NCBI GenBank assembly: GCA_963675665.1
Contig: OY776510.1
Coordinates: 2,368,001-2,432,000, forward strand
Length of the DNA: 64,000 nucleotides
Direction of reading: 5' to 3'
From: Spirochaetia bacterium
GTDB taxonomy: Bacteria > Spirochaetota > Spirochaetia > UBA9216
Numbering within the stretch: position 1 is the stretch's first letter; every line of letters begins with the position of its first letter. The translations under genes and the position numbers were made by a program. Below the pieces are notes generated by a model. The model was not told where the DNA came from. It worked only from the letters and a program-made list of their open reading frames with translations, and made no database searches. Positions 28,754-47,066 of the stretch are shown here, piece by piece.

Positions 28754-29758
28754 TTATTTTCGCGGAGGAGCTGTGCTTTCCCTGATAATTAATTCACAAT
28801 GAGGTATTGTCACCGAATCACATTCTTCTCCGTTTAGAATCCGTTTTAACAGCTCAATTCCCATTTTCCCGATTGTCTGTATGTTGACTCTTACTGTAGT
28901 AAGGGCCGGAATAAGGAATCTGGAAACATTAATATCATCGATACCTATTACCGATATATCATTCGGGACATTGATTCCTTTTGAATGCAAATATTTAATT
29001 GCATGTATCGCATATGAATCGGTTGTACAAAACAAAGCCGTAGGATATTTCTCACCGGATAATGCGTGATCAATACATTTATAGAGTGAGTCCTCATTAT
29101 GAACGCTGATCTGAATCCGGTTCATACTCAATGTTAGCCCGAATTCAGTAGTGGCATTCTGGAAGCCGGAAAATGTAAGCACATCGAATTCATTTTGCTG
29201 TTCATTTCCGATATAGGCGATATCGCTATGGCCGATATCTATAAGATATTTTGTTGCAGTATATGCCGCCTCCGTATAATCAACATGCACGGCATTCTTT
29301 GTTACTTCCTTGCGGCTGCAGTCGAGAACAAGCATGGGGACTTCAAGCTTTTTCAACTCCGGGAGAATCTCCTTGTCGACATCTCCGTAAGTTATTATTA
29401 CGTCCAAATCCGGGGAGCGCAAGATGTCTGAAAAGATTAATTTATCGTCTTTATAATGTGTGGATGCAATAATGAAATTATACGGAAGCTGTTCGCATTC
29501 CTGAATAATATTAGTATTGAGTTCGGTGTAGAACTGACGGTCCAGCGCCGAGATATTATTTCTGAAGAGTATGGCAATGTTGGAACGGGTATTATTTGCC
29601 TTTGACAAAGGATACAGGTATCCGGTATCTTCAATCACTTTCAATATCCTTTTTCGGGTTTCTTCACTAATTCCCGGGCGATTATTGATAGCAAATGATA
29701 CTGCCGCTTTTGAGACATTGGCCAGTTTTGCTATATCGTTAATTGTTACATTAGCCAT
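28754..29758 (-). CDS. LacI family regulator
   Basis: 'VTINDIAKLANVSKAAVS', 'VPNDISVIGIDD', 'PALTTV', 'LIIREST'. Confidence 0.95.
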   Translation of the reverse strand: MANVTINDIAKLANVSKAAVSFAINNRPGISEETRKRILKVIEDTGYLYPLSKANNTRSNIAILFRNNISALDRQFYTELNTNIIQECEQLPYNFIIASTHYKDDKLIFSDILRSPDLDVIITYGDVDKEILPELKKLEVPMLVLDCSRKEVTKNAVHVDYTEAAYTATKYLIDIGHSDIAYIGNEQQNEFDVLTFSGFQNATTEFGLTLSMNRIQISVHNEDSLYKCIDHALSGEKYPTALFCTTDSYAIHAIKYLHSKGINVPNDISVIGIDDINVSRFLIPALTTVRVNIQTIGKMGIELLKRILNGEECDSVTIPHCELIIRESTAPPRK

Positions 29759-30034
29759 TCTTTTAACATCCTTTAATTCAAAACTGATATAATCATACTA
29801 CATAAAACTAAACTTGTTAAGTAGATAATGTATTATTTAGTATATTCTTTAATATTAAATCTGTTATTTTGCTTATATCTCCTATAAAGTGTTTATGATA
29901 TAAGGAAATATTAATAATTATTTTTTTTCTTTACAAAAATCAATTATAATCATATACTAAACCATACATTAAACAACTTAACAGATAAGTTTGTTAATGT
30001 AAAACAATATTTTTTACTGTAAAGGAGTCAAAAG

Positions 30035-31105
30035 ATGAAAAGAGGTTTGAGTTTCATAATGTTGCTGGCGTTGGTGTGTAGTCTTGCTTTCAGCGGAGGA
30101 CAGCAGGAACAGGCTGATGCGGTTACGGTCGCTATAATGATGCCCACAAAAGAACAGCCGATATGGTCTGCTCAGGGAGAACTTATTAAAGAGCAGATGG
30201 AAGCGAAGGGTTATAAAACAATTCTTGAATTTGCTGAAGATATTGCTGAACTTCAGTTGTCGCAGGTGGAAAATGCAATAACAAGGGGCGCTGATTATCT
30301 GATTATGGGTTCGGTGGATTCGTATGCTGTAACAGATACGGTTCAGAAGGCCCGCGAGGCAGGTGTTGCTGTAATTGCCTCCGACCGGCTTATTATGAAT
30401 ACTGAGGCTGTTGATTATTATGTTACTTTCGATCTCTTCAGGCTGGGTGAACTACAGGGCGAATATATTGTAAGCGCTCTCGGTCTGGATAAGGGCGAAA
30501 AAGGGCCCTTCAATCTGGAAATCTTTTCCGGCAGCCCGGATGATCCGAACAGTATTCCTTTTTATGAAGGAGCAATGAGCAAACTTCAGCCTTTCCTTGA
30601 TAAGGGATCTCTGATTGTAAAAAGCGGCCAGACAGGTCTGGATGTTACCGGAACCTTGAAATGGGACGGCTCCAAGGCTCAGTCCCGGCTGGATAATATA
30701 ATAGGTGCATACTACACGGATTCAAAGATCGATGCTGTGCTGGCGGCTGCTGATTGTCTTGCTATGGGTGTCATTTCTTCGTTATCATCATTTGGTTACG
30801 GTAAAAGTGACGATTTGCCGTTTCCGGTTGTTGTAGGGCAGGATTGTGAAATACCGGCTATCAAATCCATAATCGCAGGAGAGCAGTCGATGTCTGTTTT
30901 TCTGGACCAGTTTGTTCTTTCAGAGAAGATGGCAAACCTGGTTGCAGCTCTCGAAGCCGGCGAACCGGTTGTTCCTGATACAAAATATAACAATAATGTT
31001 TTTGATGTTCCGACTCTCCTCTATGAACCAGTGCTTGTAGATATTAATAATTACGATCTTCTGATAGAGAGAGGATTCTATACAAGAGAAGATCTGGGAC
31101 TTTAA
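30035..31105 (+). CDS. chvE: ChvE-like monosaccharide ABC substrate-binding protein
   Basis: 'IMMPTK...W', 'DRLIMNT...YYVTFD', 'GPFNLEIFSGSPDDPN', 'VVGQDCE'. Confidence 0.8.
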   Translation: MKRGLSFIMLLALVCSLAFSGGQQEQADAVTVAIMMPTKEQPIWSAQGELIKEQMEAKGYKTILEFAEDIAELQLSQVENAITRGADYLIMGSVDSYAVTDTVQKAREAGVAVIASDRLIMNTEAVDYYVTFDLFRLGELQGEYIVSALGLDKGEKGPFNLEIFSGSPDDPNSIPFYEGAMSKLQPFLDKGSLIVKSGQTGLDVTGTLKWDGSKAQSRLDNIIGAYYTDSKIDAVLAAADCLAMGVISSLSSFGYGKSDDLPFPVVVGQDCEIPAIKSIIAGEQSMSVFLDQFVLSEKMANLVAALEAGEPVVPDTKYNNNVFDVPTLLYEPVLVDINNYDLLIERGFYTREDLGL

Positions 31106-31177
31106 TATTTACGGCGGGTCAGCCTGACCCTCGTCCTGATGATGAGGGTCGGCTGAATCGTGATTAAGGAGAGCGCT

Positions 31178-32698
31178 GTGAGCGAAGATATTATTCTTGA
31201 GATGCGAGAAATAACAAAAACATTTTCCGGAGTAAAAGCTCTTGAAGAAGTATTCCTGTCGGTATGTAATGGCGAGATCCATGCCCTGGTTGGTGAGAAC
31301 GGAGCCGGGAAATCAACTTTAATGAATGTTCTAAGCGGTGTTTTTGCCTATGGAAACTATACAGGAGAGATTTTTTTCAACGGAGAGCTGTGTAAGTTTA
31401 AATCAATAAAACAGAGTGAAGCCAAAGGTATAGCTATTATCCACCAGGAGTTGGCTCTGTCTCCATATTTGTCTATTGCGGAGAATATTTTTTTAGGAAA
31501 TGAGAATTCCAGATACGGCATAATGAACTGGAACACAACAACAAGAAAGACGGCGCATTTATTGCAGGAAGTTGGACTTGATGAGAACCCGGAAACAATA
31601 ATTACAAACATCGGGATAGGGAAACAGCAGCTTGTAGAAATTGCAAAGGCCTTATCCAAGGATGTTAAACTTTTAATCCTTGACGAGCCGACAGCCGCCC
31701 TGAATGAAACGGAGAGTGAAAATCTTCTGAATCTTCTTCTTAAGCTTAAAAATCGCGGTATTACAAGCATTTTAATATCTCACAAGCTTAATGAGGTTGT
31801 TAAGGTCGCTGATGCGATAACAGTTCTGAGAGATGGGAAAACAATAGAGACGCTTAGGGCCGGGGTTCATTCTATTGATGAAGACAGGATTATCAGGGGA
31901 ATGGTCGGTCGGGAATTAACAGATCGTTTTCCCGAAAGAATTTCGGAAGTCGGCTCTACCGTTTTTCAGGTAAGGAACTGGACCGCATATCATCCTCAGC
32001 ATTCGGCGAGGAAGATTGTAGATGATGTATCGATTGATATCAAGGCGGGCGAGGTGGTAGGCATTGCCGGCCTGATGGGTGCCGGAAGAACTGAATTCGC
32101 AATGAGCGTGTTTGGACGATCGTACGGACGAAATATCAGCGGGCAGGTTTTTAAGGATGGAAAAGAGATATCTGTCAAAACCGTTGCCGATGCTATTAAA
32201 AATAAAATTGCATATATTTCGGAAGATCGGAAAAAATTCGGGCTAGTACTTATCAATGATATTTCTGAAAATATAACTTTAACCAATCTTGAAAAAATAT
32301 CCAGTTTATTTGTACTGGATGAAAACAGAGAGATCCTTGCTGCTGAAAAAGCTGTTGAGATGTTTAAGATAAAATGCACCAGTATCCTGCAGAAAACCGG
32401 CCAATTAAGCGGTGGGAACCAGCAGAAAGTGGTGTTGAGCAAATGGATTTTTTCAGAGGCTGATATTCTTATTATGGATGAACCGACAAGAGGTATAGAT
32501 GTCGGGGCAAAAAATGAAGTCTATAAAATTATTAATGATCTCGCAGCACAGGGAAAATCAATACTATTAATATCCTCTGAACTGCCTGAAATTCTTGGCG
32601 TATGCGATCGGATATACGTAATGAGTGAGGGCAGGATAAAGGGGGAAATGTCCCGGCAGGAAGCAACCCAGGAAAAAATAATGAAACTGGTTGTCTGA
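31178..32698 (+). CDS. gguA: GguA/MmsA sugar ABC ATPase (two NBDs)
   Basis: [10 protein letters not shown], 'LILDEPT', 'FGRSYG', 'LSGGNQQK', '[12 protein letters not shown]'. Confidence 0.88.
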
Positions 32699-32712
32699 CC
32701 GGGGCTTGGAGG

Positions 32713-32813
32713 AATGATAAAAAGTCCTCCATGACTTTTTATCATTTTGAAGTTTAAAAAGAAGACTTTTTAAACTTCACTTCTGAAGCCAGCCTTCCAT
32801 GGCTGGAGTTTTT
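32713..32813. repeat. Triple palindrome (REP-like) between gguA and gguB
   Basis: 14-bp stem with CTCCAT loop (32713-32746), 14-bp stem with AAGA loop (32748-32779), 6-bp stem with TTCCAT loop (32789-32806) running into TGGAGTTTT. Confidence 0.8.
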
Positions 32814-32827
32814 TATAGGAGGAAAGA

Positions 32828-34075
32828 ATGAGTACGAATGCAGAAATGAAAGAAGAGAATATTACAGCCAAACCTGAAGCAGCTGTTTCTGAAAAGCCGC
32901 AGAAAAGTAATTCAGGTATGCTTAAAGTATTATTGCAGAATAATATCCGTCAATACGGAATGATAATAGCATTGATAGTAATTACTGGGCTGTTTCAGCT
33001 GCTGACGGGCGGAATATTGCTTAAGCCTCTTAATGTAACGAATATAGTGCTTCAAAATAGTTATATTCTGATACTTGCAATCGGAATGCTTCCGGTGATT
33101 TTAACCGGAGATATTGATCTTTCGGTAGGGTCCGTTGCCGCCTTTGTGGGAGCTATTACAGCCGTTTTAATGGTCAACCACGATTTTGGTTTCTGGGCTA
33201 CTTTGTTAATCGGTCTTCTGATGGGTCTTATGGTTGGTGCCTGGCAGGGATTCTGGATTGCCATCGTTAAAATTCCCGCTTTTATAGCCACTCTTTCCTC
33301 GATGCTGGTTTTTAGAGGCCTAACAATGGTTATTCTTGACGGCCGTTCAATAGGTCCTTTTTCCGACAGTTTCAGGGCGATGAGTTCAAGTTTTATTCCC
33401 GATTTTCTGTCGGGTGAATCCCTGCATATGACATCAATAATCATAGGTGTTGCCATATGTGCTGTTTTTATAATAATCGAGATTCTTAACAGGCGGGCCA
33501 AAAAAAGTTACGGTTTTGATATTCTGCCTTCCGTGTTTGTTTTAATAAAGCTTGTTCTCGTGTGCGGAGCTGTTATGGCTCTTGCTGTCGAATTTGCCTC
33601 TTATAAAGGAATACCTACTCTTCTTGTAATGCTTGGCGTTCTGTTCGTGATTTATACTTTTATTACAAGTAACACGGTAATAGGTCGCAGAGTATACGCA
33701 TTGGGTGGGAATGAGAAAGCAGCTGCTCTATCAGGGATAAATATTAAGCAGTTGAAGTTTATTATATTCTGCAATATGGGAGTTTTGTCTGCTGTTGCCG
33801 GAATGGTTTTTGCGGCAAGATTAAATGCCGGAACACCTAAAGCCGGTACCAATTTTGAGCTGGACGCAATAGCTGCATGTTTTATAGGTGGGGCTTCAAC
33901 CAAAGGCGGGATCGGTACAATTGCAGGAGCCATGATAGGCGGTCTTATAATGGGCGTTATTAATAACGGAATGTCCATCGTTGGAATAGCGATAGACTGG
34001 CAACAGGCAATTAAGGGTCTTGTTTTACTTCTTGCAGTTGCCTTTGACATCTACACAAAGAGCAAGGAAAGATAA
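32828..34075 (+). CDS. gguB: GguB/MmsB sugar ABC permease
   Basis: 'NIRQYGM', 'QNSYILILAIGM', 'IDLSVGSV', 'GRRVYALGGN', 'FELDAIAACFIGG'. Confidence 0.88.
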   Translation: MSTNAEMKEENITAKPEAAVSEKPQKSNSGMLKVLLQNNIRQYGMIIALIVITGLFQLLTGGILLKPLNVTNIVLQNSYILILAIGMLPVILTGDIDLSVGSVAAFVGAITAVLMVNHDFGFWATLLIGLLMGLMVGAWQGFWIAIVKIPAFIATLSSMLVFRGLTMVILDGRSIGPFSDSFRAMSSSFIPDFLSGESLHMTSIIIGVAICAVFIIIEILNRRAKKSYGFDILPSVFVLIKLVLVCGAVMALAVEFASYKGIPTLLVMLGVLFVIYTFITSNTVIGRRVYALGGNEKAAALSGINIKQLKFIIFCNMGVLSAVAGMVFAARLNAGTPKAGTNFELDAIAACFIGGASTKGGIGTIAGAMIGGLIMGVINNGMSIVGIAIDWQQAIKGLVLLLAVAFDIYTKSKER

Positions 34076-34130
34076 GAACTATTCTCGACAAATAGAAATC
34101 AATAGATAAATAATCCACAGGAGAAGAAAA

Positions 34131-35324
34131 ATGGCAGGCGGACCAGGTGCGTATTTAATTGGCGACGAAGAAAAAAAAGAGCTGCTGGAAGTAATAGACT
34201 CAAAGTATCTGTTCAGGTACGGTGCGGCGGATGACAGGAATTATAAACACAAGGTTGTTTCATTTGAAAAGGAATTGTCGGGTTATCTGGGGACAGAATA
34301 TACGGTTGCTACAAGCAGCGGAACAGGCGCTCTGATGTGCTGTTTGTCGGCATTGAATATCTCCGGAGGAGATGAAGTTCTTGTGCCGGGATATACGTTC
34401 ATTGCATCAATATCATCGATAATACTTTCCAATGCAACTCCGGTTCTGGTGGAAGTGGATGAATCTCTTACAATGGACCCGCGTGACATTGAAAAAAAGA
34501 TTACCAAAAAAACAAAAGCAATAATGCCGGTTCATATGCTGGGAAATCCTTGTAAAATGGATGAAATCAAATCGATTGCCGAAAAGTACAACCTGTATAT
34601 TATTGAAGATTGTTGCCAGGCTTTCGGTGCGTCTTATAAAGGGTTGAAGTGCGGAAATTACGGAGATATAGCTGCGTATTCATTGAATATATTTAAAACA
34701 ATAACCGCCGGAGACGGGGGTGCTGTTGCAACAAGCAGTTACAATTTATATGAAAGAGCTTTTGGTTTTCATGACCAGGGGCATAAACCTTCAAGGATGG
34801 GCGTTGAGGTTGGTAACAGGAATATAGTCGGTATGAATCTTCGAATGAATGAATTGACCGGGGCTGTATCATTGGCCCAGTTGAAGAAGCTGGATATGAT
34901 TTTAAAACTGCTCAGAAGGAATAAGGCCAGGTTTAAAAGAGGATTGAAAACGTCGCCGCACTATGCTTTCAGGGTTATAAATGATGAGAAAGGGGAGTGC
35001 GCCACATTATTGACATTAATATTCAAGACAAAGGAACTCGCTGAGAAAGTGGGTGGAGAACTGGGGATTAAACCGCTGTCTTATTCCGGGTGGCATGTTT
35101 ATAATAATATGGAACAGATTCTTGTTCACGAATCACTGTCAAAGAATATACTGCCGCAAACGGATGATATACTGTCCCGTTCAATTAATATAAGTGTCGG
35201 GGTTGTTGACAGCGGTTTGGGAGCGGGATTCGGTGTAAATATTAATTCCACTGATAAAGAAATCGATGAAGCTGCAAAAAGGTTGAGTTGTGTTATTCAA
35301 AATTCCGTCGGAGGAAAATCATGA
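34131..35324 (+). CDS. DegT/DnrJ/EryC1/StrS sugar aminotransferase, KdnA-like (copy 1)
   Basis: 'SSGTGAL', 'GDEVLVPGYTFIAS', 'EDCCQ', 'SLNIFKTITAGDGG' (PLP lysine), N-terminal 'LFRY'. Confidence 0.92.
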   Translation: MAGGPGAYLIGDEEKKELLEVIDSKYLFRYGAADDRNYKHKVVSFEKELSGYLGTEYTVATSSGTGALMCCLSALNISGGDEVLVPGYTFIASISSIILSNATPVLVEVDESLTMDPRDIEKKITKKTKAIMPVHMLGNPCKMDEIKSIAEKYNLYIIEDCCQAFGASYKGLKCGNYGDIAAYSLNIFKTITAGDGGAVATSSYNLYERAFGFHDQGHKPSRMGVEVGNRNIVGMNLRMNELTGAVSLAQLKKLDMILKLLRRNKARFKRGLKTSPHYAFRVINDEKGECATLLTLIFKTKELAEKVGGELGIKPLSYSGWHVYNNMEQILVHESLSKNILPQTDDILSRSINISVGVVDSGLGAGFGVNINSTDKEIDEAAKRLSCVIQNSVGGKS

Positions 35325-36457
35325 TTAATGCAGGTGTTATCGGGGCCGGGTATATTGGAAAGATACATCTTGATGCACTGAAAAGAATCAGCGGTGTGAA
35401 TATCAAGGCCGTCAGTGACATCAATCCAGAGTTTGCGCAGTCTGCGGCGGTGCATTTTGATGTTTCGGTTGCTGTACAAGATTATAAGGAAATTATTAAT
35501 GACAGTACTATTGATGTGATTCACAACTGTACTCCGAATAAATATCATTTTGATATAACTGAATCAGCCCTCGCAGCGGGAAAGCATGTAATGAGCGAGA
35601 AGCCTCTTGCCATGAATATCGTACAGGCTGAAGAGCTCTGTAATCTGGCTGAATCAAAAAAAGCCGTAACAGGTGTTAATTTTTGTTATCGATATTACCC
35701 GCTTGTTCAGGAGATGGCTGCAAGATTCAGACGGGGAGATGCGGGGGCTTTGCAGCTTGTTACAGGCACATGGTTTCAGGACTGGCTTTCAAGGGAAACT
35801 GATTATTCCTGGAGGCTTGATCGGGCGGAAGGGGGCGATTCGAATATAGCGGCAGATCTTGGCAGTCACTGGTTTGATCTTGTGCAATTTGTTACAGGGC
35901 AAAAGGTTAAAGAGGTTTTTGGAGATTTCCAGACGATCATAAAAGAAAGAAAAAAGCCAAAAATACAGGCGCTGGCTTTTCAGAAGACAGATTCTATTGA
36001 ATACGATTCGGTTGATGTTGAAGTAGAAGATTATGCTTCCATTCTTTTTCATTTTCAGAATGGAAGGCCCGGCTCGTTTACGGCAAGCCAGGTATGCAAC
36101 GGGAGAAAATCGGATACTGAATTCCAGATTTACGGATCAAAGTGTTCAATGGCCTGGAACCATAATGCCTCAGATAAAATATGGATAGGTTACAGGGACA
36201 AGGCTAACGAAGTTTTGACCGAATCACCTGTTTTGCAAATGGAGTCTACGGCTCGGTATGCTACGCTTCCTTCAGGGCATCCGGTAGGCTACTATGGCGC
36301 AGTACTGAATTTATTTAACGACTTTTATAATGCTGTTAAACAGAATTCTGTTCCCAACGAACTCGGGCGCCCGACTTTTGAAACCGGGTTTGAAGAAATG
36401 TGTATTTTGAAAGCAATACTGAAAAGTGTGAAAGAGAAGACCTGGGTTTTAGTATAG
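35321..36457 (+). CDS. Gfo/Idh/MocA oxidoreductase (copy 1)
   Basis: GAGYIG, 'CTPN..H', 'SEKP', 'DLGSHWFD'. Confidence 0.93.
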   Translation: MINAGVIGAGYIGKIHLDALKRISGVNIKAVSDINPEFAQSAAVHFDVSVAVQDYKEIINDSTIDVIHNCTPNKYHFDITESALAAGKHVMSEKPLAMNIVQAEELCNLAESKKAVTGVNFCYRYYPLVQEMAARFRRGDAGALQLVTGTWFQDWLSRETDYSWRLDRAEGGDSNIAADLGSHWFDLVQFVTGQKVKEVFGDFQTIIKERKKPKIQALAFQKTDSIEYDSVDVEVEDYASILFHFQNGRPGSFTASQVCNGRKSDTEFQIYGSKCSMAWNHNASDKIWIGYRDKANEVLTESPVLQMESTARYATLPSGHPVGYYGAVLNLFNDFYNAVKQNSVPNELGRPTFETGFEEMCILKAILKSVKEKTWVLV

Positions 36458-36485: not shown

Positions 36486-36518
36486 GCCCGGAAGAATAAA
36501 CATTCTCCCGGGCTTTTT
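36486..36518 (+). terminator. Intrinsic terminator
   Basis: GCCCGG...CCGGGC stem plus TTTTT between convergent genes. Confidence 0.7.
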
Positions 36519-36527
36519 GTGCCAGTC

Positions 36528-37760: not shown

Positions 37761-37789
37761 TTATAACATGTTGCTGATAAATTGACAAC

Positions 37790-39001: not shown

Positions 39002-39036
39002 AGATATGCTCCTTTCAAAATAATGCTAATGGCAAT

Positions 39037-39238: not shown

Positions 39239-40519
39239 ATGAAAGAAAAGCTCGCCATGGAAGGCGGACCTAAAGCTAAAACTACTGCGACGTATCCGAT
39301 GTATCCGGGAGGGTTGGAAATAGGTGAAGAGGAAAAAAAGGAAGTGCTCGAAGTCCTGGAGAGAAAATATCTGTTCAGGTATTACGGGCCGGAAAAATAT
39401 CCGTCCAAGGTAAAAGAGTTTGAAACCCGATTTGCGGAAATGGTCGGGGCGAAAAATGCATTGGCTGTAACTAACTGTACCGGGGCCCTTATAACATCAT
39501 TGGTTGCCTGCGGTATTGGCCCGGGAGATGAGGTCATTGTCAGCGGTTATACTTTTTTTGCTTCATGCGCCGCTATTGTTGCAGCAAAAGCTATCCCGGT
39601 AATTGCCGAAGTAGATGAAACGCTGACGCTGGATCCTGTTGACTTTGAAAAGAAAATTACTCCGTCGACAAAAGCGGTAATAGTAGTTCACATGAGAGGA
39701 GTTCCCTGCGATATGGACAGGATAATGGCTATAGCTCAAAAGCACAATCTGAAGGTGATTGAAGACTGTGCTCAGGCTGTGGGAGGTTCCTATAAGGGGA
39801 AAGCGCTCGGGACTTTCGGAGATTGCGGCTGCTACTCTTTTCAGTACCATAAGATCATTACTGCCGGTGAAGGCGGGATGATAGTGACCGATGATGATCG
39901 CATTTATGATCGATGTATGGGGTATCATGACACCGCAGCCTGCTGGAGGCCTGAGAGGTTTGCTGAGCAGCGCTATGAAGGGGAGCTCTTTGCCGGTGTT
40001 AATTACAGGATGAGTGAACTGACGGGGGCTGTAATGAATGCCCAGCTTTCAAAACTGGATAATCTTGTTGCTCTTATGAGAAGAAATCAAAAAAGGATAA
40101 TTGACGGAATACGTGAAACAGACGGAATAACAATTCGACCGGTAAATGATCCGGAAGGAGATGTCGGAATATGCCTGATGTTTTATTTGGACAGTTCGGA
40201 TAAGGTTGAGCCCTTTGTGAAGGCTTTGAATGCGGAAGGCGTTGATGCGGGCGGCGTTTTTGATGCTGCTGTTCCCGATTGGCATGTATATTCTCACTGG
40301 AAACACATTATTGAGAAAAAAACGCCTACCGAAGAAGGCTGCCCGTGGACTTGTCCGTTTCATAAAGGCAAGGATATCGAGTATTCCGAAGATATGAATC
40401 CGAATACTCTTGATTACCTGGGAAGGGTTGTACATCTTGATATCCCATCACAACTTACAGTAGAAGAGTGCGATATGATTGCAAAGGGAATTAATAAGGT
40501 TGCGGCTCATTTTGCGTAG
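39239..40519 (+). CDS. DegT/DnrJ/EryC1/StrS sugar aminotransferase, KdnA-like (copy 2)
   Basis: 'LFRYYG', 'EDCAQ', 'SFQYHKIITAGEGG', 'NYRMSELTGAV'. Confidence 0.92.
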   Translation: MKEKLAMEGGPKAKTTATYPMYPGGLEIGEEEKKEVLEVLERKYLFRYYGPEKYPSKVKEFETRFAEMVGAKNALAVTNCTGALITSLVACGIGPGDEVIVSGYTFFASCAAIVAAKAIPVIAEVDETLTLDPVDFEKKITPSTKAVIVVHMRGVPCDMDRIMAIAQKHNLKVIEDCAQAVGGSYKGKALGTFGDCGCYSFQYHKIITAGEGGMIVTDDDRIYDRCMGYHDTAACWRPERFAEQRYEGELFAGVNYRMSELTGAVMNAQLSKLDNLVALMRRNQKRIIDGIRETDGITIRPVNDPEGDVGICLMFYLDSSDKVEPFVKALNAEGVDAGGVFDAAVPDWHVYSHWKHIIEKKTPTEEGCPWTCPFHKGKDIEYSEDMNPNTLDYLGRVVHLDIPSQLTVEECDMIAKGINKVAAHFA

Positions 40520-40546
40520 GCACACACTGAAAGGGGAGTATGATAT

Positions 40547-41662
40547 ATGGCCTTGAAATTTGATATTCCTCATGGCGAAGTGGAACGAAGAAAAGATGTT
40601 GTTCGCAGAGTGTGGGACTATAAAGAGGTTGATCATATTCCCGTCTGTTTTGATCTTAAATACAATCCCGGGGGGATAACGGTTAGAGAAGAACTGACGG
40701 ATAAGGAGAAGCAGCTTGAATTGCGTTTATATAATATTGAAAAAAGTATAAACGAAATTCCTGATGACTATATTCCATCGTGTTTTCTCAATATCGGGTG
40801 TGTGGGCGTTGATGTGGCATATGGAGCGGAAGTTTTCTGGGAAGACGAAGCCAGGAATCCGTATATAAAAAAAGAAGTAATTAACAAGACTGAAGATATT
40901 TTCAAGCTGCAAAAACCTGATGTAAGAAAAGACGGAATGTTTCCGATGTTTCTTGATCTTATGAAATATGTGATAAAGGAAACTGAAGGATACATTCCGG
41001 TGTCGTGTCTGGATAATAACGGTATTACGGGGGTTGCCTGTGATCTTCTGGGAGCAGACAGGTTCTACATGATGCTCCTGGATGATGAGGCGGCCATGAA
41101 GCATTTGCTTGATATGATAAGTGATACCATCATTGAATTTACTGATGTATGTATTGAAATAGCCGGTGGTATCAACAATGTTACTTCTACCGACTGGTTT
41201 TACTTTTGGACGCCTGAAGGCCGGAAAGGGCATGTTTCCTGTGATGCCAGTGCAAATTACGGCCCGCAAATGTTTAAAAAGTATGATATTCCATTTAATA
41301 ATAAAATCTTTGAAAAATATGGAGCAGGCTTATTACATAATTGCGGACCGAATCCCTGCGGTCTCGAGTATCCTGAGCATTCGCAAAATCTTGCCGGTGT
41401 AAACCTTGCATATAAATATTCCAAAGACGATTTCGCTCGGATGAAAAAAGCGTACAGCGGGAAAAATATAATTTACATTATTTTTGATAATGAATCTCCA
41501 GAAGAAGCCTTATCAGGATGGAAAACGGCAATGGAAATCCTGTCCCCGGATGTTATCTCAATACCTATAGTTTTTATAGCCGAGGAAACAGATGATATAG
41601 CACGCCTCTATGAGAGATATCTGAAAGTGGGGAAAGAGTACGCCCGAAGAGTATGGCGTTGA
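40547..41662 (+). CDS. Uroporphyrinogen-decarboxylase-superfamily protein (MtaA/CmuA-like cobamide methyltransferase)
   Basis: 'AYGAEV', 'ACDLLGADRFYMMLLDD..AMKHLLD', 'GPQMFKKYDIP', Zn-ligand-like 'LHNCG'. Confidence 0.7.
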   Translation: MALKFDIPHGEVERRKDVVRRVWDYKEVDHIPVCFDLKYNPGGITVREELTDKEKQLELRLYNIEKSINEIPDDYIPSCFLNIGCVGVDVAYGAEVFWEDEARNPYIKKEVINKTEDIFKLQKPDVRKDGMFPMFLDLMKYVIKETEGYIPVSCLDNNGITGVACDLLGADRFYMMLLDDEAAMKHLLDMISDTIIEFTDVCIEIAGGINNVTSTDWFYFWTPEGRKGHVSCDASANYGPQMFKKYDIPFNNKIFEKYGAGLLHNCGPNPCGLEYPEHSQNLAGVNLAYKYSKDDFARMKKAYSGKNIIYIIFDNESPEEALSGWKTAMEILSPDVISIPIVFIAEETDDIARLYERYLKVGKEYARRVWR

Positions 41663-41729
41663 AAATATTTTATAATGGATTTTATGGTGTAACCATAGGA
41701 TAATAAAAATTTTATTAAAGGACGGTGTT

Positions 41730-42986
41730 ATGAAGTCAGTGAGAAAAATTGGTGTCTGTATCATGCTTCTGGTTTTACTGGGAATTATCCCGGTTTTTGC
41801 CGGTGGTGCACAGGAGAAATCTGATGATGGAGTAGTAAAACTCCAATTCGCAAGCTGGATGGTAGCTGAGGCTTCAGGCGGAGAGGAAATTATCCCTGCA
41901 AAGATAGCTGAATGGGAAGCTGCACATCCCGGTGTTGAAGTGGAAGTTGTTCCTCTTGGATGGGAAGAAACACCGGATAAAATCATCCAGCAGACCATTG
42001 CGAAAAATATGCCTGACATTTTTACTATTGAGTCTTTATGGCTTGGTAAGTTTGAAGGCATGCCGAACTGCGTAGAAGATCTGAGTTCTTACATGGACGC
42101 AGGTTTTACTTCGGAGCTCATTCCTGCATATAAAAGCGGGATTATGAACGGTAGAACCGCCGGTCTGTTGTGGAGTCCGAACCCGATGTTCATTGTTTAT
42201 AACAAGGAGCTGGCAGCAAAAGCCGGGGTCTCCGGAACGCCGAAAAGTCTGGAAGACTGGGTTTCGCAGGCTGAAAAAATAAGCGCCCTTGGAGACGATA
42301 TATACGGTCTCGGTCTGCAGCTGGGTATTGATGAATATTCGGCAGACTTTTTTCATATCCTTGCCTGGATGAAAGGTGCCGATCTTCTTGATGCCTCCGG
42401 AAAACCTGTGGTGGATTCTGCAGAAATGGCCGATACGGTTGATCTTGTCAAATCTCTGGTCGACAGGAAGATTGTTCCCTTCGGTGAGGAAGTAAGAAAT
42501 TTGAGAACGATGTTTGCTCAGGGAAAGCTCGGGTTTTTTATTGAAGGCCCATGGATTGCCGGTATACTGGATGCGGAAGGAATGTCGAGAGACGAATGGG
42601 GCGCTGCTGCTGTGCCTGGAAATGTATCTCCCTGTTCTCACCTGCTGTGTATGTCTGCGCAAACGGAGAATAAGGATCTTGCATGGGATCTTATGAAATA
42701 TATTGTTTCCGAAGAATCTCTTACGAGTGAGTATTTTAAGGGTACCGGTTTGCTTCCGGTAGTGGCATATCAGTATGATAATGCCATTTATAATGATGAG
42801 CCCACCCGAATCGCTTTGGAAGCAATGTCAAATCTTAAGAATCCCAATGTATGGCAATCCCAGAAGAAATATGAAATTGAAATAGCTTTCATGGAGGTTG
42901 TTCAGAAAATCCTTCTTAATGATGACGATATCGGTAGCTCGTTAAGCGCTCTTAATGAGGACATTGCTGAAATCATTTCAGAGTAG
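41730..42986 (+). CDS. CUT1 carbohydrate ABC substrate-binding protein
   Basis: 'VFAGGAQEK' leader, 'HPGVEVEV', 'IVYNKEL', 'FAQGKLGFFIEGPW'. Confidence 0.9.
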   Translation: MKSVRKIGVCIMLLVLLGIIPVFAGGAQEKSDDGVVKLQFASWMVAEASGGEEIIPAKIAEWEAAHPGVEVEVVPLGWEETPDKIIQQTIAKNMPDIFTIESLWLGKFEGMPNCVEDLSSYMDAGFTSELIPAYKSGIMNGRTAGLLWSPNPMFIVYNKELAAKAGVSGTPKSLEDWVSQAEKISALGDDIYGLGLQLGIDEYSADFFHILAWMKGADLLDASGKPVVDSAEMADTVDLVKSLVDRKIVPFGEEVRNLRTMFAQGKLGFFIEGPWIAGILDAEGMSRDEWGAAAVPGNVSPCSHLLCMSAQTENKDLAWDLMKYIVSEESLTSEYFKGTGLLPVVAYQYDNAIYNDEPTRIALEAMSNLKNPNVWQSQKKYEIEIAFMEVVQKILLNDDDIGSSLSALNEDIAEIISE

Positions 42987-43027
42987 TACAGAGGGCCTTC
43001 GGGCCCTTTGATTTTAATAGGGGGGTA

Positions 43028-43942
43028 TTGATGAAAGATAGTACTAAACCATTGTCCGGCCATTATCTCAGCGACAGGATGTTTGCTTTCCTCCTGCTTC
43101 TTCCGGCTATAGTAGTGATAATTTTTATTATTGTTGTACCGCTTGTTACCGGAATTTATACAAGTTTTTTCAGATATTTTATGTCTGATTCCAGGGGTAT
43201 GGAATTTGTAGGTTTTCAGAATTATATTAGAATGTTCAGCAGGGGAGCTTTTTGGAATGCCTTTTTGAACACTCTGGTATATGTAGGAGGCTGCGTCCTG
43301 GGAGAGTTTGTAATCGGTTTTACTCTGGCTCTGCTTTTAAACTTTAGTTTCAGGGGCAAAGAGATAATAAACAGCCTTTTCTTTGTGTCGTGGATTATTC
43401 CGTCTATTGTTGTCGCCCTGATAACAAAGTTTTTATTTTTTGATCATTATCACGGAATAATTAATGTAGTACTTCAAAATCTGGGAATAATTGATGAATT
43501 TCTTCCCTGGTTGAAAGATCCAAACCTGGCAATGCCTTCGATACTTATAGCGACTGTATGGAAGATGTTTCCATTCATGTTTGTCCTTCTTTATGCGGGG
43601 CTTCAGGCTATACCGATTTCCGAAATAGAGGCTGCGAGGATAGACGGCGCAAATGCTTTTCAAAGATTTTTCTATATCACAATCCCTAATATGAGAGAGA
43701 TTATTGCCCTTGCCACCGTGCTGGAATTTATATGGATGTTTCAGTATATGACGATTATCTGGACTACAACAAAAGGCGGGCCGGCAGATGTGACTACAAC
43801 TCTACCGGTTATGATTTACAGGGTTTCGTTCAAAGGAAGCATGAATATGGGTTATGCTTCGGCAATAGGAGTTTTCTGGATGCTTTTTCTTCTGGGCTTC
43901 AGTATTTTTTACGTAAAAATGGTCGGAAAGGAGGAGAAGTAG
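43028..43942 (+). CDS. CUT1 ABC permease (MalF-like)
   Basis: 'FVGFQNY', 'LQAIP...EAARIDGA', 'TKGGP'. Confidence 0.93.
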   Translation: MMKDSTKPLSGHYLSDRMFAFLLLLPAIVVIIFIIVVPLVTGIYTSFFRYFMSDSRGMEFVGFQNYIRMFSRGAFWNAFLNTLVYVGGCVLGEFVIGFTLALLLNFSFRGKEIINSLFFVSWIIPSIVVALITKFLFFDHYHGIINVVLQNLGIIDEFLPWLKDPNLAMPSILIATVWKMFPFMFVLLYAGLQAIPISEIEAARIDGANAFQRFFYITIPNMREIIALATVLEFIWMFQYMTIIWTTTKGGPADVTTTLPVMIYRVSFKGSMNMGYASAIGVFWMLFLLGFSIFYVKMVGKEEK

Positions 43943-44808
43943 TGAGACAGCCGGGAAAGATGAACAGAACGAGAATAATAAAAACTATCAGAATAGTAAT
44001 TATTATAATTCTGCTTACTATAACATTATCGCCGCTTTACTGGATGGTGAATGTATCATTCAAGAATCAGGATGAAATCTTTCAGATTCCTCCTACTTTT
44101 TTTCCGAACAATTTTACGCTTGAGAATTATAAAGCTATTCTGATTGGAAATTTGTCTTCTTCCATTAAATTCTTAATGTATTTTAAAAACAGCCTGATAG
44201 TTGCAGCATTGACGGTTGTCGTTACTTTGCTGGTTGCTACACCGGCCGCATATGCCCTTTCAAGGGTCCGGTTTAAAGGTAAAAGGATGCTGATATATTT
44301 TGTGCTGATTTCACAGATGTTTCCAATTGTATTGATTCTTATCCCCCTCTATCAATCATTTCTTCGGTTGAATCTGGTCAGTACATTTGCAGGCCTTATG
44401 CTGGCAAATATGATGTTTGCCCTGCCGTTTTCAATATGGATGCTGAAAGGATATTTCGATTCAATACCGGGGGTTCTGGATGACGCTGCCAAAGTTGACG
44501 GTTGCAGTCGTATGCAGGCAATGCTTCTGGTAATCATGCCGAATGTCAGGCCGGGGCTTACTGCTGCAGCTATAGTGGTTTTTATTCAATGTTGGGATGA
44601 ATTCATGATTGCCCTGACCGTAATGGATAAAAATTCGATGAGGACTCTGCCTGTGGGCATTATTCAGTCTTTTGTGGGTGAGTTCTCGATAAAATGGGGA
44701 GAGATGATGGCTGCTTCCGTTATAACGACAATTCCGGTTGTTATCATCTTTATTTTTCTCAGCAAGAATCTTATCGGCGGACTGACTGCGGGCGCTGTTA
44801 AGGGATAA
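43942..44808 (+). CDS. CUT1 ABC permease (MalG-like)
   Basis: GTG start overlapping the previous stop; 'AAYALSR', 'YFDSIP..LDDAAKVDG', 'GLTAGAVKG'. Confidence 0.93.
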   Translation: MRQPGKMNRTRIIKTIRIVIIIILLTITLSPLYWMVNVSFKNQDEIFQIPPTFFPNNFTLENYKAILIGNLSSSIKFLMYFKNSLIVAALTVVVTLLVATPAAYALSRVRFKGKRMLIYFVLISQMFPIVLILIPLYQSFLRLNLVSTFAGLMLANMMFALPFSIWMLKGYFDSIPGVLDDAAKVDGCSRMQAMLLVIMPNVRPGLTAAAIVVFIQCWDEFMIALTVMDKNSMRTLPVGIIQSFVGEFSIKWGEMMAASVITTIPVVIIFIFLSKNLIGGLTAGAVKG

Positions 44809-44824
44809 TATTGGAGTATGAATA

Positions 44825-46258
44825 ATGCAAATGAATAATCTGAAGGTGTTATCCGATGAGGAAGTTGCAAACATAGTAAAAGCCTCATCGAGGATCCTCA
44901 GTGAAACAGGAGTCAAAATCGACAGCAGTACTGTTCTTGAAAAGCTTTCAAAAAAGGGCGCTGTAGTTGATTTTAAAGCGGGTATAGCAAGGTTTCCGGA
45001 GGAAATACAAAGAAAATGCCTGGAGTCGGCTCCCAAGGAAATACCTGTAGTTAACCGTAATGGAGAATATCAATTTACAATCGGCGGAGACAGTACTGTT
45101 TTTGCAAGCGGGCATAATGCTGTTTTTTTTGATGACTATATAACAGGTGAGCACAGACAGTTCGTTCGAAAGGACGTCAGAGATTATATTGCGGTTGCTC
45201 ATAATCTGGATGAGGTTGATTTAATCGGTTTGCCGGCCTCGCCTGGAGATGTGCCGCCGGCAAGTTCATTATTATATTCGCTGATGGATACATTTACTTT
45301 AAGTGATAAACCTGTTTATTTCTCTACTGAAAGCGACAGAATAAATCATTATGCAATTGAAATGGCTCAAGCGTCTGCGCCTCTGGCTGTGAATAAAGGT
45401 GCATATATGATCAGCCAGCTGTCTCCCACCTCTCCGTTGTTCTGGGAGAAGGGCGCCGTACAGGGAGTTGTTGAATGTGCGGAAAGAGGGTTTCCTGTTT
45501 CAATCCTTCCTGAACCTATAGCAGGCGTAACGGCTCCATATTCGCTTTCAGGACTTGTGACCGTGCATAACGTGGAAGCTCTTTCGGGAATAATTATCAC
45601 ACAGCTGATTAATCCCGGAACCCCTGTAATATGGGCAAGCAGCTGGACAACTTTTGACATGAAAAAAAGCGCTGCACTTGTCGGTTCTGTAGAAACTACA
45701 CTTTGCAGAATTGCCGGAGCCCAGGTTGCAAAGTATTATAATCTTCCCCTGCATACGACCGCCCCTAATTCGGACAATCATTCGCCTGATGAGCAGAACA
45801 GCTGGGAAAAGACTTTAAGTTCCTTTTGTGCAGCTTCGTCCGGAAATAATCTTATTATGAATATGGGAATGTATGCCTGCGGTATGACTATCAGCCTGGA
45901 GCAGTTAGTGCTTGATGCTGAAATAATCGGTCAGATTAAAAGGTTGAGAGAAGGTGTTGATGCTTCGGTTGATATGATAGCTGAAGAACTGATTGGAAAG
46001 GTCGGATACAGGGGTTCTTATATTATTGAAGATCATACCATAGATTTGTTGAAAACAGGTGAATACCGGGAACCTCTGATAGCTGTCAGGCAGAATCTTG
46101 ATTTATGGAAAGAAAAAGGAGCAAAGAATTCCATGGAACTTGCTCACGCTATGGTTAACAAGTTGCTGTCCCAGCCTTTGCCTGTGGTTGATGATAAAAA
46201 ATATGCAGAGATGTTTTCAATAATTAATACTTGTGAAAAGGAGTTGCTAAATGGCTAA
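44825..46258 (+). CDS. MttB (trimethylamine methyltransferase) superfamily, non-pyrrolysine member
   Basis: 'SPTSPL.W', 'AGVTAPYSLSG..TVHNVEALSG...QLINPGTP', 'SDNHSPDEQNSWEK', 'SLEQLVLDAEI'; no in-frame TAG. Confidence 0.9.
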   Translation: MQMNNLKVLSDEEVANIVKASSRILSETGVKIDSSTVLEKLSKKGAVVDFKAGIARFPEEIQRKCLESAPKEIPVVNRNGEYQFTIGGDSTVFASGHNAVFFDDYITGEHRQFVRKDVRDYIAVAHNLDEVDLIGLPASPGDVPPASSLLYSLMDTFTLSDKPVYFSTESDRINHYAIEMAQASAPLAVNKGAYMISQLSPTSPLFWEKGAVQGVVECAERGFPVSILPEPIAGVTAPYSLSGLVTVHNVEALSGIIITQLINPGTPVIWASSWTTFDMKKSAALVGSVETTLCRIAGAQVAKYYNLPLHTTAPNSDNHSPDEQNSWEKTLSSFCAASSGNNLIMNMGMYACGMTISLEQLVLDAEIIGQIKRLREGVDASVDMIAEELIGKVGYRGSYIIEDHTIDLLKTGEYREPLIAVRQNLDLWKEKGAKNSMELAHAMVNKLLSQPLPVVDDKKYAEMFSIINTCEKELLNG

Positions 46259-47066
46259 TATTAGTGTGTGTGCTGAATGTTTCTTTACCGATTTGCCTTT
46301 TGCAGAAAGGGTGAAGAAAATAGCTGCTATCGGATACCGGGATATTGAATTCTGGCATCCGGAAGGAACGTTTAACGGAAGTGATATTGATTTTACGCAA
46401 GCCAAGGATGCGGCGACGCTTAACAGTTCGGCCGGTTCGGTCGGCGTGAAATATAATGATTTCGCATTTGGCGCATGGGACGGTTCGATCGGCGGTAATG
46501 CGACAAAAAAAGAAGACCATGAAAAATGGCTGCAGCAGATTGATGCAATGCTGGCTTTTGCTCAAAGCATCTCCTGTCCAAAAGGGATAATTCTTTCGGG
46601 AATGACTCAGCAGGGAATGAATCGTGATCTTATGAACGGGAACCTGTTGATTGCGTTTGGAAAAGCCGCTTCCGCTGCTGAAAAAGCAGGCATTACGCTT
46701 GTGATAGAACCGCTTAACAGTCTTGTAGATCATGCCGGGTATTATCTTGATAAAACCGGTGCGGCTGTTGAACTTATAAGACAAATTAATAGCCCTAACC
46801 TGAAAATGCTGTACGATGTTTATCATATGCAGGTCATGGAGGGGAATATTCTGGATTTTATTGAAAGAAATATCGATATTATCGGACATTTTCATTCTGC
46901 CGGAGTTCCCGGACGTGCCGAATTGTTCGATACGGAAGTCAATTATCCTGTTATTATAAAGAAAATTGATGAACTTGGATATGACGGATGTTTTGGTCTT
47001 GAGTATTTCCCAAAACTGGAAGATGAAGAATCATTAAAAAGAACTCTGGAGTATTTAACTGTCTGA
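46251..47066 (+). CDS. Hydroxypyruvate-isomerase-like TIM-barrel isomerase/epimerase
   Basis: 'IEPLNSLVDH.GY', 'LYDVYHMQVMEGN', 'HFHSAGVPGR', 'GLEY'. Confidence 0.85.
   Translation: MANISVCAECFFTDLPFAERVKKIAAIGYRDIEFWHPEGTFNGSDIDFTQAKDAATLNSSAGSVGVKYNDFAFGAWDGSIGGNATKKEDHEKWLQQIDAMLAFAQSISCPKGIILSGMTQQGMNRDLMNGNLLIAFGKAASAAEKAGITLVIEPLNSLVDHAGYYLDKTGAAVELIRQINSPNLKMLYDVYHMQVMEGNILDFIERNIDIIGHFHSAGVPGRAELFDTEVNYPVIIKKIDELGYDGCFGLEYFPKLEDEESLKRTLEYLTV

Follow-up and report, generated by a model that had tools for sequence, protein, structure and literature searches.

We have analysed a 64,000-nucleotide window from the genome of a sugar-fermenting spirochaete (Spirochaetia bacterium; the window is positions 2,368,001-2,432,000 of a single contig of 5,150,563 bases), in which two transport units at 28754-47066 bring together pyridoxal-phosphate-dependent aminotransferases of the DegT family, Gfo/Idh/MocA dehydrogenases, ATP-binding cassette (ABC) importers and a member of the MttB methyltransferase superfamily. 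We tentatively suggest that this region and the linked XylA-like operon (24413-28742) serve together to break down an amino-sugar-like compound, both as such and in methylated form; we regard this as a serious possibility that stops somewhat short of being probable, and the more specific idea that the methyl group is an N-methyl is doubtful. The suggestion draws on the gene content of the window, on synteny that runs in both directions between the MttB protein and one of the aminotransferases (DegT2), on a signature of pocket residues that marks the MttB clade, and on corrinoid machinery encoded elsewhere in the same genome, all of which were directly observed.

On the MttB side, a profile built from 22 relatives of the window protein retrieved 186 relatives (one genome per species), and the best 80 of these 186 loci were kept. 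They share 40-70% identity with the window MttB and come from at least 12 phyla (Spirochaetota, Bacillota, Atribacterota, Planctomycetota, Lentisphaerota, Bacteroidota, Armatimonadota, Acidobacteriota, Hydrogenedentota, Chloroflexota, Actinomycetota and Latescibacterota), the closest named relatives being Spirochaetota; many of the contigs in both synteny sets are short. Neighbours were labelled by BLASTP of open reading frames (ORFs) against the window proteins, and for families that the window lacks Pfam and NCBIfam supplied the names. DegT is encoded within 10 kb of MttB in 43 of the 80 loci, and in 23 of the 40 that have at least 5 kb of flanking DNA on either side, while a Hyi-like isomerase gene is present in 30/80. 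By chance, about 2.5% of random 20-kb spans would be expected to hold a DegT gene (there are six strong DegT genes in the 5.15-Mb source genome). Together with the reverse synteny described below, this leads us to reject a chance neighbourhood; the initial annotation had staked its interpretation on MttB and DegT homologues co-occurring in other genomes, and seen from either gene they do form a conserved unit.

A second count used only non-overlapping ORFs, by which the MttB ORF was lost in five loci, leaving 75. It found DegT in 38 of these, a Hyi-like gene in 25, an SftI-like isomerase in 15, Gfo/Idh/MocA and SSF symporter genes in 14 each, a XylA-like gene in 12, and glutamate dehydrogenase in 6; UroD-like genes occur in 12, and a second UroD group in a further 6. 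The 12 XylA-like homologues (54-76% identity) lie inside MttB/DegT2 modules. LacI homologues stand beside DegT/MttB in 11/75 loci and ROK genes in 7/75, and AraC-type genes recur beside the relatives of both MttB and DegT2. Usually DegT and MttB form one tight block on the same strand, the commonest order being DegT2-Hyi-(UroD-like or XylA-like)-MttB. In Bacillota the order is LacI-DegT1-Gfo-(XylA-like)-MttB or DegT1-ChvE-GguA-GguB-MttB, and both units of the window are thus tied to MttB in other genomes. In loci of Bacillota and Atribacterota, Gfo and MttB are linked to DegT1 homologues (57-64% identity), ChvE-like homologues with 55-61% identity are found beside MttB in three loci (L038, L039 and L069), and relatives of DegT2 with up to 78-84% identity occur in other phyla and in metagenomes. 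The DegT linkage is scattered across the whole MttB clade (24 changes on a quick tree, against 28.3 in shuffles), and a DegT-specific MttB subclade was looked for on the same tree and not found. The catabolic setting that was proposed at the outset is borne out by this company, which elsewhere includes SSF symporters, binding proteins and permeases, LacI, ROK and AraC regulators, glutamate dehydrogenase and glycoside hydrolases.

The view from DegT2 adds a hierarchy to this arrangement. A metagenome scan gave 522 relatives, of which 80 were kept (53-84% identity, mostly on short contigs), and neighbours were counted only in the 25 loci with at least 3 kb of DNA downstream. A Hyi-like gene adjoins DegT2 in 21 of these, a Gfo2-type dehydrogenase is present in 11 and a Gfo1-type in 3, MttB in 8, a XylA-like gene in 6 (54-78% identity, with the match covering at least 30% of the query) and a UroD-like gene in 4. 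The loci show two recurrent forms, one being LacI/DegT2-Hyi-Gfo-XylA-like, which lacks MttB, and the other DegT2-Hyi-MttB, in which the UroD-like gene may be present or absent; the source genome has the parts of both. In one locus (L204) a PfkB-like homologue (45%) follows DegT2-Hyi, and a mannitol-1-phosphate-dehydrogenase-like homologue (41%) is present as well. Given the frequencies of Hyi and MttB, DegT2-Hyi is the core of the module and MttB an optional add-on in about one third of cases, which looks like the pattern expected if MttB were to prepare a methylated variant of the core's substrate.

The window MttB falls clearly within PF06253 (gathering threshold 25 bits; residues 3-465 on profile positions 28-490), and its best solved relatives, MttB of M. 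barkeri at 191 bits and MtgB of D. hafniense at 174 bits, align with it from end to end; a search of the ESM Atlas returned only generic MttB clusters. It is not of the pyrrolysine subtype, as the TIGR02369 score stays below its cut-off and the frame is open with no in-frame TAG. In MtgB, Y97 and F356 form a cation-pi pair while R312 and H348 bind the carboxylate, and R312 is described, in the available text of PMC13080624, as conserved in all MttB-superfamily members of known function. In an alignment made with HMMER (chain numbers being those of the paper minus 2), Y97, R312, H348 and F356 of MtgB correspond to H97, H310, N346 and G353 of the window protein; all four are replaced throughout the clade, whose pocket is not of the betaine type. 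The signature H97, N98, W207, E208, W274, H310, N346 and G353 is invariant in 76/76 members, and the clade-specific positions differ in seven distant paralogues and in the second MttB of the source genome. In contrast, D317, D322, E328 and G96 are family-wide, being kept in the clade, in the seven paralogues and in the second MttB. For the MttB-MttC complex, the available text of PMC9842639 names Pyl334, Tyr364 and Met249, and has the Gly110-Thr111 peptide and Gly372 hydrogen-bonding the corrinoid; the window protein has N315, M345 (M or V in the clade), E230 (E or Q in the clade), A94-S95 and G353 at these places. An invariant zinc site of the Cys type was not seen in the clade. From the alignments we read the clade as having one conserved polar, Trp-rich pocket, neither a betaine nor a pyrrolysine site.

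Two observations on other MttB proteins may be added. In L002, L003, L004 and L065 (Spirochaetota) and in L030, L040 and L055, the clade MttB has a second, very divergent paralogue (21-34% identical) as a tandem or nearby gene, which differs at every clade-specific pocket position. The second MttB-family gene of the source genome (C1:2756281-2757573; L097 8282-9628) is divergent from an ABC importer of the polar-amino-acid type and stands beside a ferredoxin-like gene; its pocket positions are unlike those of both MtgB and the sugar-operon clade.

The remaining parts of a three-component methyltransferase system (corrinoid protein, second methyltransferase and RamA) are present in the source genome, and at the window locus no cognate corrinoid protein is encoded with the first methyltransferase. 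A hub at C1:2066551-2074377 (L094 6551-14377) consists of a PocR-AraC regulator, a corrinoid protein of 228 residues with a DxHxxG motif, encoded at C1:2068048-2068734, a full-length UroD/MtaA-like protein whose C-terminal extension is rich in Cys, CobW, RamA and a MalK-type ATPase, and it lacks a first-step methyltransferase; corrinoid protein and UroD are paired once more at 5.11 Mb. Small corrinoid proteins, 46-64% identical to that of the source genome, are found in all of five other module-bearing genomes with long contigs and RamA in four of them, compared with RamA in 1 of 14 controls. Among 41 relatives including the source genome, the MttB clade occurs in 3, RamA in 24 and, at 60% identity or more, the corrinoid protein in 20; the two other relatives with the clade (G020 and G024) have RamA as well as the corrinoid protein. 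The hub corrinoid protein is 88-91% identical in genomes of the same genus or family that lack the MttB clade.

The operon itself contributes a UroD-like protein (40547-41662), a candidate second methyltransferase. It had no sequence match among solved structures at E <= 1, and in addition to the table it scores 29 bits with TIGR01463 (cut-off 235) and exceeds the gathering threshold of PF01208 (23.9 bits). Its AlphaFold2 model (predicted local distance difference test score 92.8) matches the M. mazei MtaA structures 4AY8 (E 7.9e-14, template-modelling scores 0.69/0.74) and 4AY7 (E 3.1e-13, 0.67/0.73) best, followed by uroporphyrinogen decarboxylases, only slightly lower, and MetE. An H264-x-C266 motif is invariant in 14 and in 12 homologues, with no conserved third Cys seen; we take it to resemble the zinc motif of MtaA-type enzymes. 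The source genome has 12 UroD-family matches in all: the window copy, two full-length proteins beside corrinoid proteins, and nine divergent paralogues at about 71.9 kb, 321-334 kb (three), 974 kb and 1.046, 1.830, 3.801 and 4.910 Mb of C1 (L114-L121). Every one of them is found within or next to a transporter locus. For seven this locus is of the sugar ABC type (Peripla_BP_4, Peripla_BP_6 or SBP_bac_1), where several close a binding protein-ATPase-permease-permease operon; one is beside an AraC regulator and an MFS transporter, and the ninth is probably an unassigned ORF in a TRAP-transporter locus. It is possible that these paralogues are dispersed methyltransferases, or else decarboxylases, for imported sugar derivatives, and they are candidates for the other methyltransferases that the hub must serve.

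As for the amino group, DegT1 and DegT2 are 42% identical, and for both the best solved relative is KdnA (5K8B; 252.8 and 271.5 bits, respectively), with perosamine synthases, scyllo-inosose transaminases and NtdA far behind. Their description as KdnA-like has therefore stood, placing them closest to an enzyme whose substrate is named as a sugar acid, and not to those acting on nucleoside diphosphate (NDP)-sugars. Both keep a Lys in the aligned ...IFKTITAG... and ...YHKIITAG... stretches (not the His of the dehydratases), which is presumably the catalytic position. A Pfam scan of the locus found neither a KdnB-type gene nor a lipopolysaccharide context, and no curated KdnA model of NCBIfam was matched.

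Gfo1 and Gfo2 are 71% identical. Their best NCBIfam match is the levoglucosan dehydrogenase model NF052479 (174.5 and 182.2 bits, below the cut-off of 650), which indicates membership at family level only; among solved structures, Gfo2 is nearest to an unannotated oxidoreductase (4H3V, 148 bits) and to levoglucosan dehydrogenase (6A3F, 134.5 bits), the latter ahead of DgpA and AFR, with a scyllo-inositol/L-glucose dehydrogenase scoring lower. The initial annotation had seen in the locus a reversal of streptamine-like chemistry, with two successive rounds of dehydrogenase and transaminase. As the two dehydrogenases are paralogues that sit in separate transport units, parallel rather than sequential steps are suggested instead. 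Its aminocyclitol or rhizopine-like substrate does not fit well either: the XylA-like, SftI-like and mutarotase partners are of aldose type and argue for an aldose rather than a cyclitol. The broader scheme of import, demethylation and deamination retains the support of a conserved catabolic unit and a non-betaine pocket, shorn of these two elements.

The Hyi-like protein belongs to the AP_endonuc_2 fold family (97 bits) and has only unannotated solved relatives. For the monosaccharide-type binding protein the best solved relative is ChvE (3URM, 326 bits); it scores below the NF040907 cut-off, so its ligand may differ from that of ChvE. The CUT1-type binding protein has sophoro-oligosaccharide and maltose binders as weak solved relatives, and its importer comes without an ATPase of its own.

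From this assembly of genes we infer every catalytic step, the dependence on corrinoid, the order of the steps and the position of the methyl group (N or O). Uptake would be through the two ABC importers, one of the ChvE/GguAB monosaccharide type and one of the CUT1 type. The MttB-clade enzyme, its betaine cage rebuilt as a polar, sugar-type site, would then take the methyl group off the substrate and pass it to a small corrinoid protein of the distant hub, in its Co(I) state, and the UroD/MtaA-like enzyme of the operon, with its invariant His-x-Cys, would hand it to an acceptor. DegT1 and DegT2 would transfer the amino group to a 2-oxo acid, leaving a keto or aldehydo sugar, which the Hyi-like and XylA-like isomerases and the Gfo enzymes might convert by isomerisation and reduction to an ordinary sugar that is phosphorylated by a kinase and enters glycolysis. 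Glutamate dehydrogenase, beside the module in six loci, would fit recycling of 2-oxoglutarate as the amino acceptor. A literature search, which covered mainly journals outside subscription, turned up no paper on this gene combination or on corrinoid-dependent demethylation of sugars. A wider proposition, which we put forward with clearly less confidence than the catabolic assignment itself, is that B12-dependent, oxygen-independent demethylation of methylated sugars or amino sugars is spread across fermentative anaerobes of a dozen phyla, with first methyltransferases (the MttB clade, and here the nine UroD-like proteins) in sugar-uptake operons that feed one shared hub.

Several findings weigh against the catabolic assignment or its details. 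The only specific family models whose cut-offs were reached are those of GguA, GguB, HgcA and HgcB, the models for Hyi, OtnI, levoglucosan dehydrogenase, MtaA and ChvE all scoring below theirs. No corrinoid- or B12-binding family was found in the window locus or, around the 80 MttB loci, in the 40 largest clusters of neighbours, so that the B12 dependence rests on genes encoded elsewhere; of these, RamA was not found in one of the five module-bearing genomes, and the hub is far wider than the MttB clade among relatives, hence necessary-looking but unspecific. In 37/80 MttB loci there is no DegT in the available DNA, and 17 of these are among the 40 with full flanks. DegT2-like genes do occur elsewhere in 10/10 DegT-less genomes tested, with 2-15 copies each, so this is non-discriminating. 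As to an N-methyl group, one MttB means that one methyl is removed, and a transaminase is inactive on a secondary or tertiary amine, so the N-methyl route would work only for a mono-N-methyl compound; moreover, we know of no abundant natural N-methyl amino sugar.

The expansion of KdnA-like DegT genes is itself of interest: genomes G045-G054 (loci L007, L018, L019, L024, L037, L046, L061, L071, L076 and L080), which are glycan degraders of the Planctomycetota, Acidobacteriota, Armatimonadota and Hydrogenedentota, carry them in 2-15 copies per genome, and this hints at a broad catabolic use.

The surroundings of MttB appear to be those of carbohydrate metabolism even where DegT is missing. Twelve DegT-less loci with long flanks (including L007, L010, L018, L019, L024, L061, L071 and L076) were scanned with Pfam and carry glycoside hydrolases of families GH2, GH36, GH106, GH4 and GH123, a malectin-domain protein, SSF symporters, ROK or LacI regulators and further UroD-like genes. 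These hydrolases and symporters would be in keeping with a reading in which the MttB clade, and perhaps the UroD-like proteins too, demethylates O-methylated neutral sugars from glycans (such as methyl-galactose, methyl-rhamnose or methyl-fucose), with DegT-Hyi serving another, merely co-regulated amino sugar. Such a system would be an anaerobic counterpart of oxidative sugar demethylation. A pocket rich in His, Asn, Glu and Trp that lacks the cation-pi pair would suit such substrates, as would the presence of nine further UroD-like paralogues, seven of them in sugar-type ABC operons; also, a hub that is widespread in relatives without the MttB clade must serve other first-step methyltransferases. 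However, the frequency of DegT within 10 kb of MttB, usually in a tight same-strand block, is hard to square with two different substrates. By established chemistry, Co(I) would have to displace an alkoxide, which leaves poorly, and the clade shows no invariant Cys-type zinc site. We consider O-demethylation of neutral sugars an unlikely explanation, and yet the best of the alternatives.

Somewhat less likely still is that the MttB-clade protein is no longer a methyltransferase at all, but a TIM-barrel isomerase, lyase or dehydratase that acts on a keto or amino sugar without any corrinoid. The absence of a corrinoid protein in cis, the company of other TIM-barrel sugar enzymes, and the replacement of the four MtgB substrate residues as well as of the pyrrolysine, Tyr364 and Met249 positions of MttB can all be read in this way. 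What speaks for a methyltransferase is the end-to-end alignment with MttB and MtgB, which takes in the C-terminal dimerisation-loop region that holds MttC, along with the retention of D317, D322, E328, G96 and the corrinoid-contacting G353; the MtaA-like partner is frequent (12 + 6 of 75 loci), and module-bearing genomes contain RamA and corrinoid proteins.

A biosynthetic role, in which oxidation, transamination and methylation would yield an N-methylated amino sugar as an osmolyte or cell-surface sugar, appears very improbable to us. DegT enzymes are mostly biosynthetic, and pairs of Gfo and DegT make kanosamine just as an oxidoreductase and KdnA make 8-amino-3-deoxy-D-manno-octulosonic acid (8-amino-Kdo). 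The present locus nonetheless has two importers and three sugar-type repressors or activators; as the initial annotation had noted, no ORF of 28754-47066 matches a nucleotidyltransferase, glycosyltransferase or exporter family (Pfam, E <= 1e-5). The neighbours in other genomes are glycoside hydrolases, symporters and glutamate dehydrogenase. Characterised MttB-family enzymes, as described in the available text of PMC13080624, take methyl groups from their substrates.

Turning to the layout of the locus, gene calls were made from the ORF list and from Pfam and NCBIfam scans of the window proteins, and every gene that the initial annotation had named was recovered at its position (Table 1). Its account is extended here by the XylA-like operon upstream, four genes faced by an AraC regulator, and by hgcA-hgcB (47205-48475) directly downstream. 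Unit A consists of a minus-strand LacI gene followed by the ChvE-like, GguA, GguB, DegT1 and Gfo1 genes (30035-36457). Gfo1 probably starts at 35321, overlapping the DegT1 stop, as its alignment to Gfo2 begins at residue 12. Unit B consists of ROK and Gfo2 on the minus strand (36528-39001) and seven plus-strand genes from DegT2 to the Hyi-like gene (39218-47066); gene spacing supports a single operon for these seven, with MttB and Hyi overlapping by 8 nucleotides and the other gaps measuring 16-67 nucleotides. The start of the second permease was corrected from 43732 to an in-frame ATG at 43960, which has GGAGGAG just before it. The hairpin at 42989-43010 could fix the ratio of binding protein to permease transcripts. 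The hairpin that ends the operon has so long a loop that a consensus terminator scan missed it. Gfo2 and DegT2 are separated by an AT-rich spacer (39002-39217), in which a perfect 13-bp inverted repeat lies between divergent promoter-like sites and is a candidate operator, probably for the ROK regulator; a second perfect copy was not found in the window, and no common regulon can thus be demonstrated for unit A, unit B and the XylA-like operon.

Table 1. Features of the window around the two transport units, with the matches on which their names are based (scores in bits).
Feature	Position	Strand	Basis
AraC-family regulator	23366-24454	-	Pfam HTH_18 and AraC_binding; divergent from the XylA-like operon
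XylA-like (class I xylose-isomerase-like) TIM barrel, 'TIM_a', accessory module enzyme	24413-25444	+	TIGR02631 204, below cut-off 447
TTE1925-type mutarotase-like protein	25521-26393	+	NF052227 162, below cut-off 550
Divergent PfkB-family sugar kinase	26390-27580	+	PF00294 53
Mannitol-1-phosphate-5-dehydrogenase-like oxidoreductase	27573-28742	+	PF01232, PF08125; NF002646 199, below cut-off 368
LacI-family repressor of transport unit A	28754-29758	-	Pfam LacI and Peripla_BP_3
ChvE-like monosaccharide-type binding protein	30035-31105	+	NF040907 365.6, below cut-off 460
GguA-type ABC ATPase	31160-32698	+	NF040905 829, above cut-off 810
GguB-type ABC permease	32828-34075	+	NF040906 539.7, above cut-off 450
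DegT1, KdnA-like aminotransferase	34131-35324	+	PF01041 262
Gfo1, Gfo/Idh/MocA dehydrogenase	35321-36457 (ORF from 35288)	+	Pfam
Terminator-like 12-bp hairpin between convergent Gfo1 and ROK genes	36486-36513		Terminator scan
ROK-family (NagC/Mlc-like) regulator	36528-37760	-	PF00480 154; NagC 178.8, below cut-off 650
Gfo2, Gfo/Idh/MocA dehydrogenase	37865-39001	-	Pfam
Promoter-like sites, divergent	39051-39023 (-), 39167-39195 (+)		Promoter scan of spacer
Candidate operator, perfect 13-bp inverted repeat with 5-nucleotide spacer	39084-39114		Read from sequence
DegT2, KdnA-like aminotransferase, module core enzyme	39218-40519	+	PF01041 287
UroD/MtaA-like TIM barrel, candidate second methyltransferase	40547-41662	+	PF01208 44, residues 84-204 only
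Family-1 (CUT1-type) sugar-binding protein	41730-42986	+	PF13416, PF01547
GC-rich 9-bp hairpin between binding-protein gene and permeases	42989-43010		Terminator scan
ABC permease, MalF/UgpA type	43028-43942	+	PF00528; NCBIfam
ABC permease, MalG type	43960-44808	+	NCBIfam MalG model matches the long ORF from residue 76 on
MttB-superfamily protein, 'sugar-operon' clade, without pyrrolysine	44825-46258	+	PF06253 272.8; TIGR02369 347.8, below cut-off 525
Hyi/OtnI-like TIM-barrel isomerase	46251-47066	+	TIGR03234 163.7, below cut-off 353; OtnI NF043033 150, below cut-off 325
Terminator-like 10-bp stem followed by 8 U, at the end of the DegT2-to-Hyi operon	47089-47134	+	Fold -18.5 kcal/mol, z-score -1.88
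hgcA	47205-48176	+	NF040863 400.8, above cut-off 275; starts 139 nucleotides after the Hyi-like gene
hgcB	48173-48475	+	NF040864 125.4, above cut-off 99

HgcA and HgcB, the corrinoid protein and the ferredoxin of mercury methylation, are characterised by a cap helix N(V/I)WCA(A/G)GK and a C-terminal membrane domain in the former, and by two CX2CX2CX3C motifs and a C-terminal Cys pair in the latter. The window proteins agree with this canonical description: HgcA has the cap helix NVWCAAGK and is hydrophobic in its C-terminal half, while HgcB carries two ferredoxin motifs and ends in CCC. The pair is present in single copy, is only 56% identical to the copies of the same genus, and is patchy among relatives, HgcA scoring over the cut-off in 9/41 genomes. 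We also considered HgcA as the corrinoid partner of MttB and rejected it: HgcA is found in 0/80 MttB loci, and in seven hgcAB loci from six relatives MttB, UroD-like, DegT and Hyi genes occur in 0/7 within about 10 kb. For these reasons, and with a terminator-like hairpin between the two units, the adjacency of hgcAB to the sugar operon is best read as coincidence. The idea that MttB and the UroD-like protein feed methyl groups to the adjacent HgcA, as the native methyl-feeding route of HgcAB, would gain from the short intergenic distance and from a corrinoid protein with a ferredoxin partner that together complete a three-component set, but the same synteny leaves it close to refuted, the faintest of the alternatives, and the available text of PMC11588087 (2024) reports S-adenosylmethionine as the methyl donor of HgcAB.

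Further downstream, a separate sugar operon (49814-52980) lies behind a LacI-like regulator (48484-49512) and encodes a D-psicose 3-epimerase (NF051856, 385.9 bits, cut-off 300), a tagatose-kinase-like PfkB protein (281.5 bits, below the cut-off of 420) and a GatZ/KbaZ-like protein. The rhizopine-binding model NF052284 matched only this LacI-like regulator, with 31.5 bits.

The elements that we regard as new are the reverse synteny, in which MttB joins a DegT2-Hyi core as an add-on, the shared corrinoid hub, the network of UroD-like paralogues and the exclusion of hgcAB. If demethylation of sugars should prove true, the MttB superfamily would extend beyond methylamines and betaines into carbohydrate chemistry. 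The characterised enzymes of the family act only on trimethylamine or acidic quaternary amines, and a sugar-operon clade with a polar pocket would widen this range; it would also point to a source of carbon and methyl groups for anaerobic glycan degraders, in a clade that annotation pipelines mislabel as trimethylamine methyltransferase. Although DegT proteins are usually taken to be biosynthetic, the DegT2-Hyi core suggests that free amino sugars are commonly broken down by way of transamination. Suitable targets for deorphanisation are the two binding proteins, the regulator with its candidate operator, and the seven-gene operon, while the adjacency of hgcAB is a caution against reading function from neighbours.

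In comparison with known systems, the importer of unit A has two of the three ChvE-GguAB components, GguA and GguB, above their cut-offs and the binding protein at 365.6 against 460 bits. The catabolism of rhizopine (3-O-methyl-scyllo-inosamine) by the moc genes of rhizobia resembles the proposed pathway in combining import, demethylation, a Gfo/Idh/MocA dehydrogenase and a TIM-barrel enzyme, but demethylates by means of an oxygenase; neither a rhizopine-type binding protein nor a MocDEF-type oxygenase or ferredoxin was matched among the ORFs of 28754-47066 in Pfam and NCBIfam. The levoglucosan/3-keto-sugar (LgdA) and DgpA-type C-glycoside systems share with the window the combination of Gfo proteins, AP_endonuc_2 TIM barrels and ABC importers, but have neither a transaminase nor MttB, and the window Gfo proteins score far below 650 bits. 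The KdnA/KdnB route to 8-amino-Kdo in Shewanella, whose transaminase is the closest to both DegT proteins, pairs an oxidoreductase with a transaminase on a free sugar, not an NDP-sugar. KdnA is biosynthetic and belongs to a lipopolysaccharide context, whereas the partners of the window DegT proteins are importers, repressors, isomerases, MttB and Gfo/Idh/MocA dehydrogenases rather than a KdnB-type oxidoreductase.

With M. barkeri MttB (7XCL, 7XCM and 7XCN) the window protein shares a PTSPL stretch and the corrinoid-bonding Gly (Gly372, here G353); that enzyme is pyrrolysine-dependent, in contrast to the window MttB, which has N315 at this position. The MtgB, MtpB, MtcB, MtyB and MthB systems of Desulfitobacterium hafniense and Eubacterium limosum are similar in family (PF06253), in the lack of pyrrolysine and in the full-length alignment of MtgB with the window MttB, and they need a separate corrinoid protein, a second methyltransferase and RamA, all three of which the source genome encodes. 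They differ in the pocket, where the window clade has H and G in place of the cation-pi pair and H and N in place of the carboxylate binders, R312 being lost; and unlike these systems, the window MttB stands not beside a corrinoid protein or betaine transporters, but in a sugar operon with a transaminase.

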